From a phage, in assembly GCA_026188615.1 (NCBI GenBank), contig GCA_026188615.1_4525.1: a DNA stretch of 64,000 nucleotides; one strand, given 5' to 3'. The notes beneath the pieces were generated by a model. It saw only the letters and a list, made by a program, of their open reading frames with translations, was not told the DNA's origin and ran no database searches. The position numbers and the translations under genes are program-made. Below are positions 6,538-22,418 of the stretch, piece after piece (positions within the stretch are counted from its first letter, which is position 1; every line of letters begins with the position of its first letter).

Positions 6538-7163
6538 TATAGTAACTCAAAGAATTCTTTGAGGCCTCGTATTGTGTGAACGTGTGACGCCCCACATTTG
6601 GGACATTTAATAGGGGTTGCCAGATAAATTGATGGCGACACCAAAAGATTTTTAATATTGATCATATCATCTTCTGTTATAAGGCCGTAAAGGTCGTTTA
6701 TTTCTGCTTCAGTTAAATCTTCAACAGCGATGGACTCTCCATTTACAAAAACGGCCTCAATACATGAAGCAATCATTAATGCGATATTTTTATCGTCAAA
6801 TAATTTAGGTTGACGGAACTTAATTTTAATACCACTAAACGAATACCAGGGATCGGCCTGTTCATCTAATTGAGTGTGCAATAAATTCATATAGACTTGA
6901 AATGAATGCCCACAGGAACAATTCCAGGTGTGTTCTTGATTCACTTCACCTAACGAATGTGCCCACAGATTTACCAACAATAACTCGGCTTCTTGTTTAG
7001 TCAAGTTTTTAGCGTTAGAGCAATTAGTGATAATATTGTTCACTGCTGATTCAATAGTACCGGTAGCCCGCGCACCTATGAGTCCTAAATATTCTTTTAA
7101 AGTAAAGGCTCTACAATTCACTTCTTTATCGCCTAAACGTACGGTAAACGTATATTTGTACAT
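6537..7163 (-). CDS. 26: gp26 baseplate hub protein
   Basis: 208 aa; Cys/His-rich (CSCGHS...CPKCG); position and size as T4 gp26. Confidence 0.7.
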   Translation of the reverse strand: MYKYTFTVRLGDKEVNCRAFTLKEYLGLIGARATGTIESAVNNIITNCSNAKNLTKQEAELLLVNLWAHSLGEVNQEHTWNCSCGHSFQVYMNLLHTQLDEQADPWYSFSGIKIKFRQPKLFDDKNIALMIASCIEAVFVNGESIAVEDLTEAEINDLYGLITEDDMINIKNLLVSPSIYLATPIKCPKCGASHVHTIRGLKEFFELL

Positions 7164-20769: not shown

Positions 20770-21138
20770 TTATGCAACTTTAATCCAATTGTCTAAATTT
20801 AAAACACCTTTGGCTTTCATTTTTTCGATCAGGTTATCTGCTGTAATGCGTCCATTTTGATACCATGTAACATCTTCAGAGTAACCAGTTTCTTCGTCAA
20901 CATATGTTTCTGAACGAATTTTACCGGTAATAATAGTTTTTAATTCATATGTGTCACCTGTGAAAAAGTTTGCTAACACAATTTTCCAAGAGAAATCATC
21001 TGAAGGACCTTCAGGGGTCATACAACCTACGAACTCAAATTGCTCTTTGTATAACATCCACTGGAATTCTTTAATTTCGATAGCTTTATAACCGTCGTGG
21101 TCTTTACATTTGATGTATGAGTTCAGATTGATTTTCAT
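20770..21138 (-). CDS. Hypothetical protein, 122 aa
   Basis: ORF in track. Confidence 0.5.
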   Translation of the reverse strand: MKINLNSYIKCKDHDGYKAIEIKEFQWMLYKEQFEFVGCMTPEGPSDDFSWKIVLANFFTGDTYELKTIITGKIRSETYVDEETGYSEDVTWYQNGRITADNLIEKMKAKGVLNLDNWIKVA

Positions 21139-21180: not shown

Positions 21181-21209
21181 ATAGTAACACATCCTACAGG
21201 AGAGTAAAC
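21181..21209 (-). promoter_or_regulatory. Early-promoter cassette
   Basis: Minus strand GTTTAC, 17 bp, TACTAT. Confidence 0.45.
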
Positions 21210-21240: not shown

Positions 21241-21264
21241 ACAAAAGGGAGACCGAAGTCTCCC
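21241..21264 (-). terminator. Intrinsic terminator gggagac-UUCG-gtctccc plus U-run
   Basis: 7-bp GC-rich stem; the same hairpin sequence recurs at 38345..38362. Confidence 0.6.
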
Positions 21265-21269
21265 TAAAA

Positions 21270-21449
21270 TTATGCAACAACCTTTCCAAAACGAGAAGCA
21301 TCATCTCGAAGAACTGCACGTGCTCTGCGCATGATCTTCTCAACTGTTTGATTAATACGAGAGTTCGACCCACGCTTGTATCCAGCGCGTTTAGAGGTAC
21401 CATCAACTTTCTTTTCAACTGCTTTCTTTGCTTTAGCTTGTTTTGCCAT
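21270..21449 (-). CDS. Small basic protein, 59 aa (MAKQAKAKKAVEKK...RFGKVVA)
   Basis: Not in the ORF track (under 60 aa); translated by hand; followed immediately by the terminator; preceded by 260 bp of non-coding sequence. Confidence 0.4.
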   Translation of the reverse strand: MAKQAKAKKAVEKKVDGTSKRAGYKRGSNSRINQTVEKIMRRARAVLRDDASRFGKVVA

Positions 21450-21712
21450 TATAAATTCTCTTTAAATGAAAATGCAGGACTTATTGACATTGCCTGCGCA
21501 AGCCCTCAAGGGGAACATAGGTTTTGGATATTTAACGACAGGATAACCATAAACCCGTCATCATACCAACCACGACTTAGACAGATAACCTTTTTCTGAC
21601 GCGTGATAGTACAAAATACATTCAAGAGGTACACCGTAAAACTGCCGGGGACTTAAAACTATAATGATTCGCAAATCATTAATCAGACAGTTCGACGGCT
21701 CCTCGATTTAAC

Positions 21713-21961
21713 TTACTTTAGGGTAATAACAAAATGACGTACTGCTTTACGAGCTGCAGAAGCCAAAGGCTTAGCATATTTCAGTTCATCTTTTGCTTCC
21801 AGTTCAGAGGCCAAAGCTGCCTGGACCGGGTTCAGATGTTTGAAATATCGCAGGATTTCAAGAGCTTCGGCTTCAACATCGATAGATGCGCCATAGTTTT
21901 CGTGACCATTATTCCATGCGTTACGTTGCAGTTCAAGAGCGTGTTGTAATTGTTTAATCAT
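21713..21961 (-). CDS. rIII: rIII-like lysis-inhibition accessory protein, 82 aa
   Basis: 82 aa as T4 rIII; position next to gene 31. Confidence 0.55.
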   Translation of the reverse strand: MIKQLQHALELQRNAWNNGHENYGASIDVEAEALEILRYFKHLNPVQAALASELEAKDELKYAKPLASAARKAVRHFVITLK

Positions 21962-22077
21962 TTTAAATTCTCAATTCGAGATAATATTTAGTAGCCACGT
22001 TCGTCTGAATTTCACCTTCTTTCGACAAGTCTCTCAGTTGTAGGCTACCGCTTAGAAGAGTGTTCTCTTCATATAGT

Positions 22078-22085: not shown

Positions 22086-22418
22086 TCACTTATAAAGACA
22101 CGGAATAGCTTTATAATGGCATGTTACGAATTTCTGTTTAATTTCTTTAGGTTGTTTAAGTCCCAAAGCCACAAATGGATGTGGAACATTTCGAATTTGT
22201 CCAACTGGTAGTGGAGTCAAATCACCGACTTCAACAAAACCTTCAGGAACATCAGGACCTACAGAATGAACTACACATAGTTCAGGAACTTCACCTTGAA
22301 CACGTTTACCAATCACAAGTCCTGATTCGGTAACTTCTTCATCACCTGCTTGAGCGGGTTCAGAAACCAGAATGACATATTCACCAACAGCACGAATTGG
22401 GAGTTGTACTTCAGACAT
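22086..22418 (-). CDS. 31: gp31 co-chaperonin (GroES analogue)
   Basis: 110 aa; near-colinear with T4 gp31 ([21 protein letters not shown]...KAIPCLYK). Confidence 0.85.

Follow-up and report, generated by a model that had tools for sequence, protein, structure and literature searches.

The spacer between rIII and 30.9

We studied the 263-nucleotide (nt) noncoding spacer (positions 21450–21712) between genes rIII and 30.9 in a 64,000-nt stretch of phage DNA (contig GCA_026188615.1_4525.1 of GenBank assembly GCA_026188615.1; hereafter the window). The source phage is a T4-type Mosigvirus, and its rIII-30.9 region is 99–100% identical to that of mar005P1-type Mosigvirus phages. All genes and modules described here lie on the minus strand, which is also the sense strand of the spacer. 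Gene 31 (22086–22418) comes first in the local gene order and is followed by rIII (21713–21961), which encodes 82 aa, matches phrog_1457 ("lysis inhibition accessory protein", E = 4e-43), is annotated as rIII in relatives, and ends with a TAA stop at 21713–21715. Beyond the spacer lies gene 30.9 (21270–21449, ATG at 21447–21449; phrog_1427, E = 2.4e-31), encoding a 59-aa basic protein, with a Shine-Dalgarno (SD) sequence, AAAGAG (21458–21463), 8 nt upstream of the ATG. An intrinsic terminator (21243–21265) closes the unit with the hairpin AGGGAGAC-UUCG-GUCUCCCU (21246–21265) plus UUUU, and gene 30.8 (20770–21138) is found downstream of this terminator and of an early-type promoter. The original prediction, made from the letters of the window alone, had proposed a noncoding gap ahead of the ATG at 21449, a 59-aa open reading frame (ORF) with a weak SD, and a strong terminator behind it, all of which are borne out. 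T4 has a matching gap of 244 nt that is unannotated (130541–130784), and RB69 shares the rIII-gap-30.9 layout.

The terminator, with an 8-bp stem and UUCG loop followed by UUUUGUG, folds with a free energy (ΔG) of −19.4 kcal/mol (z = −6.0, equaled by 0/200 shuffles); it is also annotated in relatives, and a simple promoter/terminator scanner missed it. Just past it we noted by eye a T4 early-promoter-like site (GTTTAC, 17-nt spacer, TACTAT; 21181–21209, minus strand) that is absent from the consensus-scanner output and that suggests that 30.8 begins a new transcription unit. Since rIII transcription has been reported from early, middle, and late promoters (PMC9409239) and the first terminator comes only after 30.9, spacer RNA is expected throughout infection. 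The best reading of this layout is that the spacer RNA would be cotranscribed with rIII and 30.9 and would end at the terminator past 30.9.

A gap of this length had been called unusual for its tightly packed region. The gap itself is real, but the 31-rIII spacer (124 nt) is likewise long and structured. Between 21975 and 22075 (minus strand) it carries a late promoter (TATAAATA) and then a small hairpin, a linker, and a long hairpin, which is the layout of the 30.9 leader, and the rIII leader also has an SD hairpin after its long hairpin. The long hairpin (21996–22051) is 80% identical (E = 6e-6) to the hairpin that precedes 30.9 in Klebsiella-type phages.

Several observations establish that the gap is noncoding. 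Its only ORFs span 37–42 aa, start with GTG or TTG, and have 0 PHROG matches, and indels among relatives have lengths that are not multiples of 3, with whole blocks reshuffled. Older T4 records list a 97-aa "ORF 31.-2 / 11.1 kDa protein", an extension of the 30.9 frame that reaches into the gap; this form requires an extra A to open the frame, and the window has a stop 5 codons upstream of the 30.9 ATG. A leader peptide starting from a conserved AUGAUG was ruled out since its frame and stop vary, and inspection likewise ruled out a late or middle promoter within modules A or C1 (described below), where TAAATA-like and GCTT-like strings vary. The sigma-70 promoter scan found no site within the gap. 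The tRNA and noncoding RNA covariance scans proposed along with the original prediction returned no tRNA or tmRNA in the window region and only noise-level Rfam 15 matches in that region and in relatives.

The 30.9 protein itself is conserved across genera. Among 65 homologues its core, SKRAGYKRGSN.RINQ..EKIMRRARAVLRDDASRFG, is nearly invariant in phages of Escherichia, Klebsiella, Enterobacter, Serratia, Pectobacterium, Cronobacter, and Yersinia. Its AlphaFold2 (AF2) model is a single long basic helix (residues 23–53, predicted local distance difference test 67), and searches of Pfam, PDB, NCBIfam, and PADLOC gave 0 matches.

Modules of the spacer RNA

We gathered loci by means of the 30.9 protein, obtaining 65 from IMG/VR (40 distinct after removing between-scan repeats) and several GenBank phages, and surveyed 47 distinct rIII-30.9 spacers for recurrent modules. 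Spacer length varies from 120 to 460 nt, and the order rIII, spacer, 30.9 holds wherever rIII is present. A pseudoknot, module A, occurs in 47/47 spacers, and a hairpin of the form GUNCCC....GGGCUUG, module C1, in 45/47 under a looser pattern and 44/47 under a stricter one. Other modules are found in fewer spacers: a long hairpin (module E) in 23/47, a 145-nt multi-helix RNA (module B) in 20/47, a unit of about 35 nt (module D) in about 20/47, and a further hairpin (module F) in 18/47. Their order is E-F-A-C1-C2 in the window and D'-E-A-C1-C2 in T4, and other phages show A-D-B-C, B-A-C, D-E-F-A-C, C1-A-hairpin, and other arrangements. The distance from module A to the 30.9 ATG ranges between phages from about 60 to about 280 nt, and modules E, F, B, and D are gained or lost while 30.9 stays. 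This variation in module order and in distance to the start of 30.9 weighs against one leader element controlling the 30.9 ribosome-binding site (RBS).

Sequence conservation within modules is high. Between the window and T4, module E is identical at 88/90 positions and modules A and C at 114/118, compared with 71% of rIII third codon positions, and loop sequences are conserved across genera as well as stems. Neither strand shows significant folding stability over the whole gap (z = −1.35 and −0.98). Because whole-gap folding energy is thus unexceptional, the description of the region as structure-rich must stand on comparative evidence, and here covariation and conservation do support it (by energy, module E alone reaches z = −3.5): the proposed check of structure and covariation across related phages revealed helices kept by compensatory changes in modules E and A. 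The best explanation is that the spacer is a noncoding RNA composed of independently folding modules.

We also considered whether the modules belong to a dispersed repeat family and rejected this, as self-blast and the module A covariance model R1 (below) show no second copy in the window; the one related hairpin lies in the 31-rIII spacer. Two further observations concern individual records. Locus L068 (IMGVR_UViG_2974770551_000001), a T4-type phage, is the only locus with readable upstream sequence that departs from rIII-spacer-30.9 synteny: it lacks rIII and module A and has a 30.9-like gene, with an early-type promoter ahead of it, directly after gene 31. Module A therefore goes along with rIII and its spacer, and not simply with 30.9. 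Separately, MG065689 ("Campylobacter phage A110a") and three similar records carry a 92%-identical spacer of the Escherichia coli T-even type, and these Campylobacter-labeled records are probably contaminated or mislabeled.

Module A (21508–21570, core 21515–21559) is an H-type pseudoknot present in one copy per genome. Stem 1 (S1) pairs GACGGG with CCUGUC, the 5′ strand of stem 2 (S2) lies inside the S1 loop, the S2 3′ strand is CCUAUG, and loop L3 is A-rich and 13–15 nt long (GUUAAAUAUCCAAAA). In an alignment of 28 distinct phage sequences (A2), 81.8% of module A cells are paired, compared with at most 50% when the structure is slid along the alignment. Fully compensatory changes occur at S1 pairs 13–35 and 14–34 and at S2 pair 24–53, and the A's in CGU.AAA and AAAC are invariant. 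A covariance model built from phage module A sequences only (R1) finds one copy in the window at 65.6 bits (next match 13.5 bits), one copy in each of 39 loci with an rIII-30.9 spacer, and none in the phage that lacks rIII.

Module E (21621–21704) is an accessory, long, irregular hairpin (ΔG −27.4, z = −3.5) built from helices P1 (GAGG/CCUC), P2 (GCCGU/ACGGU), P3 (GAACUGUC/GGCAGUUU), and an apical P4 (21662–21681) with a UGCG loop. This tip is the aatgatt-tgcg-aatcatt hairpin that had been picked out from the sequence, and it now extends to taatgatt/aatcatta at the end of an 84-nt structure. Across its 25 pairs 99.2% of cells are paired (slid controls reach at most 62%), and compensatory changes affect 5 pairs, a number reached by 0/500 shuffles. 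Loci L076 and L058 have a truncated apex and keep the basal stem. The G.U pairs of module E are valid on the sense strand only, indicating that the structure is one of RNA and not of DNA.

Module F (21563–21612) is an accessory hairpin with a fold z of −1.8 that is missing from T4; its inner stem changes from CAGA/UCUG to CAGC/GCUG in loci L005, L026, and L075, and modules F and B take the same site in different phages. It contains the first copy (GGTTATCTGTC, 21580–21590) of an 11-bp direct repeat proposed earlier. The repeat does exist, with its second copy at 21537–21548 and starts 42 nt apart, but it is only marginally beyond chance (84/2000 shuffles do at least equally well, P about 0.04); this 11/12 stretch is all that modules F and A share.

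Modules C1 and C2 lie nearest to 30.9 in the window. C1 (21499–21516), recognized in the motif census, is a small hairpin, GUUCCCC-UUGA-GGGCUUG, located either immediately after module A or immediately after the rIII stop, and its compensatory variants (CCUC/GAGG and GCC/GGC) are rare. C2 (21474–21497) pairs GCAGG with CCUGC around a conserved 14-nt loop (CAAUGUCAAUAAGU). It matches a predicted hairpin to within one base, although its covariation amounts to two lineages (L058 and L062, where the loop is kept on another stem, AACUGG/CCAGUU) plus one G.U variant (L056), and its folding energy alone is not significant. In Klebsiella-type phages C2 is replaced by a longer hairpin, the one that matches window positions 21996–22051.

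Module B is absent from the window. Of its 44 predicted pairs, 22 show compensatory changes, and the module is found in L035 (about 945–1090), L048, L049, L056, JS98 (NC_010105, 131219–131353), and VR5. Each of 407 T4-type phage records contains one copy, at least 90% identical across genera, whereas Rfam and blastn searches of bacterial sequences gave no match to it.

Similarity to type III antitoxin RNAs

According to their published description (PMC12283969), bacterial tenpI RNAs are H-type pseudoknots in which stem 1 is conserved, stem 2 covaries, and the second half contains a run of adenosines; module A resembles them. Both have a bulged stem 1 (GUGG.GG/CCCCAC in tenpI; GACG.GG/CCUGUC in the window), the 5′ strand of S2 in the stem 1 loop, a long A-rich loop, a covarying stem 2, and the motifs GAUGUGG and CCACGU(U/A)AAA (CCCCACGU(U/A)AAA). 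The A-runs of tenpI occupy the same alignment columns as the adenosines of module A. In a joint phage and tenpI alignment (A7), which was fitted to the model and so favors stem 2, 87.5% of cells are paired and 9/12 pairs are changed on both sides. Unlike tenpI, module A is present in one copy, has no TenpN gene, and has a stem 2 of 7 bp compared with 4–5 bp.

Covariance models recognize each other's family in both directions. The E. coli plasmid pYLMB22 (NZ_CP073975, locus L083) carries a promoter, two nonidentical tenpI repeats (GTGGCGGTAGGAATGAGCCCCACGTTAAACAAACAAGCTTCC and GATGTGCGGTAGAGTTCGCCACACGTAAAAAATCCAAGACTCAACG), a terminator, and then TenpN, and the top two R1 matches in pYLMB22 are both tenpI repeats. 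R1 was also run on eight TenpN loci beyond pYLMB22, taken from plasmids of Klebsiella, Citrobacter, Salmonella, Enterobacter, and Yersinia (10.9 kb, both strands); its top 11 matches all fall at 299–415 on the plus strand, directly upstream of the toxin gene (E = 3e-5 to 0.06 in 7/8 loci). Overall, R1 matches tenpI in 8/9 TenpN plasmid loci, and all of their toxins exceed the NCBIfam TenpIN equivalog cut-off. Conversely, a reverse model (R2) built from 12 bacterial tenpI repeats only was run across 21 phage loci; its top 10 matches are all module A (best E = 0.0013), and it matches module A in 15 of these loci. Plasmids with TenpN homologues come from Escherichia, Salmonella, Klebsiella, Enterobacter, Citrobacter, and Yersinia, that is, from hosts of the T4-type phages concerned.

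Two side observations arose from pYLMB22. Its RefSeq tenpN coding sequence (L083 2001–2627) is N-terminally overextended and spans the terminator and both tenpI repeats; the true start is likely the ATG at 2462. In addition, C1 (CCCCUUGAGGGCUUGCG, 21499–21516) looks similar to the 3′ half of the terminator located behind the tenpI repeats (CAGAGGGCUUUGCUUUUUUU, L083 2505–2540, minus strand). This is a short match seen by eye only, and C1 may be a terminator stub that was captured along with an antitoxin unit.

The tenpI link emerged with covariance models only. Blastn searches with the gap modules as queries, covering 72,556 plasmids and 5,426 E. coli genomes, yielded toxI arrays and nothing else, and these for module D. 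An IUPAC pattern for module A gave 6 chance-level matches among 185,579 species genomes, in metagenome-assembled genomes of Bacteroidota.

Module D (L035 GGTGATTTGCTACC-AAAGTGCAGCTAGAAAT; L003 AGGTGATTCGCTACCTTAAGTGCGGCTAGAAAATC) matches the 36-nt toxI repeats (AGGTGATTTGCTACCTTTAAGTGCAGCTAGAAATTC, 5.6 copies) that lie upstream of annotated ToxN/AbiQ on E. coli plasmids. Its pseudoknot helices are kept by compensatory changes (UGC/GCA, CGC/GCG, CAC/GUG, AGC/GCU). The window has lost module D to a clean deletion of 32 nt that directly follows the rIII stop (junction 21709–21712); the sequence there reads "taagttAAATCGAGG" versus "taagttttAGGTGATTCGCTACCTTAAGTGCGGCTAGAAAATCGAGG" in L003. In relatives, one ToxI-like unit immediately follows either the rIII stop or module A (L003 1049–1085, L035, L044, L045, L048), and T4 (L004) has one at about 6745–6785 on the minus strand. 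Such units are found in 200 phage records, among them phiTE, whose unit is annotated as pseudo-ToxI, and 163 Klebsiella T4-type phages; nearly all are unannotated. Such a unit was discarded as the cause of the published partial toxIN resistance of RB69, as the RB69 spacer lacks module D, like the window. We also dropped the idea that C1 or D mimics a CRISPR repeat of type I-E or I-F, since the stems do not match.

Phage RNAs resembling type III antitoxins have a precedent. ToxI mimicry by phage RNA is an established escape route (PMC3475682), and the phiTE pseudo-ToxI that exemplifies escape from abortive infection is, like module A, a phage-encoded, intergenic, noncoding look-alike of a type III antitoxin RNA. 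Relatives of the window phage even hold a ToxI-like unit in the rIII-30.9 spacer itself. Module A differs in belonging to the TenpI family and in being a universal single copy across T4-type genera, and the window is without a ToxI-like unit. A second parallel is TifA, the T4 inhibitor of ToxN (PMC9391042, PMC10853763), which is likewise a T4-type counter-defense against a type III toxin–antitoxin (TA) endoribonuclease; TifA is a small basic protein, as is gp30.9. Unlike the RNA of module A, however, TifA is a protein, and it is encoded elsewhere, beside dmd.

Proposed antitoxin mimicry and competing explanations

The absence of a promoter-terminator-TenpN layout at module A, where the downstream gene is 30.9, identifies an orphan antitoxin-like RNA rather than a TA system. 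We give an even chance to the interpretation that this orphan is a TenpI-like antitoxin-mimic RNA, a decoy that would keep TenpN inactive. The toxIN system is triggered when its labile antitoxin decays after host transcription is shut off (PMC10853763). By the same logic, a phage that shuts off host transcription would cause labile host tenpI RNA to decay, and the TenpN endoribonuclease would be freed to destroy phage mRNA. The phage pseudoknot could then take the place of tenpI on TenpN and hold it inactive. For this, the phage RNA would have to accumulate, bind TenpN, and thereby protect the phage. Relatives would add the ToxI-like module D against ToxN, a module that the window phage has lost, and modules E, F, C1, and C2 may be stabilizers, processing sites, or further decoys.

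A number of results weigh against the decoy interpretation. The model built from tenpI alone scores the window copy of module A at just 9.9 bits, with E = 5.4 and only the third rank in the 64 kb. The connection of this copy to tenpI goes by way of the phage family, whose model R1 gives it 65.6 bits. The window or T-even form is the most diverged module A, and its S2 is imperfect, requiring a bulge and leaving several cells unpaired. Stem 2 is also what the model-fitted alignment A7 favors. The Yersinia tenpI locus L085 is unmatched by R1, and the blastn searches and pattern scan above found no near-identical bacterial module A. Module A is single-copy and bacterial tenpI has about 1.8–2 repeats or more, and the short pseudo-ToxI of phiTE protected only after expansion (PMC3475682). 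Finally, modules E, F, C1, and C2 are without a known counterpart, and a position just upstream of a weak-SD gene also suits a cis-acting leader.

That leader is the main rival, and we regard it as possible rather than probable. Under this explanation the hairpins and pseudoknot would be an intercistronic element that sets the stability, processing, or translation of rIII-30.9 mRNA, for example as RNase barriers or as an operator bound by gp30.9 itself or by a phage repressor of translation, and the tenpI likeness would reflect shared ancestry or convergence. Two co-oriented genes without a terminator between them, and a weak SD just downstream, fit such a role, as do the parallel arrangement of the 31-rIII leader (small hairpin, linker, long hairpin, SD hairpin), the interchangeability of one of its hairpins with C2 of other phages, and the small CUCC/GGAAG hairpin that holds the 30.9 SD in non-T-even relatives. 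Structured leaders are familiar from T4 mRNAs, including the gene 32 pseudoknot operator and the RBS-sequestering hairpins of late genes, and the spacer resembles them in that its pseudoknot and hairpins occupy an untranslated part, 5′ or intercistronic, of a T4-type mRNA. It shares no sequence similarity with them, and module A, unlike an operator, is separable from the RBS and varies in its distance to the start codon. The permuted module order, the coming and going of E, F, B, and D without loss of 30.9, and the conservation of loops besides stems across genera all speak against a leader, as does the resemblance of two modules to two separate antitoxin families. Decoy and leader roles can nevertheless coexist.

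A broader possibility, which we advance tentatively, is that the entire spacer is an "RNA anti-defence island", T4 included: a constitutive platform that would combine the pseudo-TenpI of module A, an optional pseudo-ToxI in module D, and other decoys in E, F, C1, C2, and B. The latter would target further RNA-binding or RNA-cleaving host defenses, and gp30.9 might serve as a partner.

The remaining explanations are improbable. Module A is very unlikely to be the antitoxin of a phage-borne type III TA system with 30.9, 30.8, or 30.7 as toxin. The order of antitoxin-like RNA, small gene, and terminator loosely recalls type III loci, and some phage genomes are reported to contain TenpN genes (PMC12283969). 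However, rIII, 30.9, 30.8, and 30.7 match neither TenpIN (NCBIfam) nor any PADLOC or ToxN-like Pfam model (a control TenpN scores 129.5 bits), the 59-aa gp30.9 is modeled as a helix, and the terminator lies past 30.9 and not between the RNA and a toxin gene. We likewise see little chance that the spacer is a nonfunctional fossil or recombination scar, a hyperplastic region in which hairpins and pieces of captured host or plasmid DNA were left behind. Indels and swaps are indeed frequent (the 32-nt deletion of D in the window, a deletion of about 50 nt of F in T4, replacement between B and F, and E hairpins truncated at the apex), but all or nearly all spacers of many genera retain A and C1, module identity is far above that of synonymous sites in the flanking gene, and helices are maintained by compensatory changes. 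Least probable is that the gap acts at the DNA level, as a promoter, origin, or protein-binding site, or that it holds a small protein-coding gene. In favor one could cite the 97-aa ORF and the small ORFs placed in the gap by some automatic annotations; but the 97-aa frame is broken in the window, gap ORFs lack PHROG homologues, no sigma-70-like promoter is present, and G.U pairs and U.G intermediates fit sense-strand RNA only.

Together, these results confirm the original prediction in part. Its observations hold with the qualifications given above, and its proposal of a regulatory RNA, leader, or protein-binding site was near in spirit: the gap does encode a conserved, structured, noncoding sense-strand RNA, but not a known riboswitch, leader, or Rfam family, and probably not a single leader of the 30.9 RBS. 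Our literature search found no description of TenpI-like or ToxI-like units in T4-type phages and, for the rIII-30.9 spacer, nothing beyond a 2003 citation about rIII and 30.9 expression. A phage RNA mimicking a type III antitoxin is an already known kind of element, represented by one laboratory case, the phiTE pseudo-ToxI. The novelty would lie in the antitoxin family, which is not the one mimicked in phiTE, in the universal conservation across a model phage group, and in the modular build of the locus.

If the decoy interpretation of module A is true, T4-type phages, T4 included, would carry a naturally fixed TenpI-like RNA, and RNA decoys would be a standing part of their counter-defense. 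This would assign a function to a gap that has been left unannotated in T4 for decades. It would also offer a handle on the poorly characterized tenpIN systems, namely which phages they stop and why many escape. The rIII-30.9 locus also holds other strongly conserved RNAs outside known families, such as module B with its 407 phage records.

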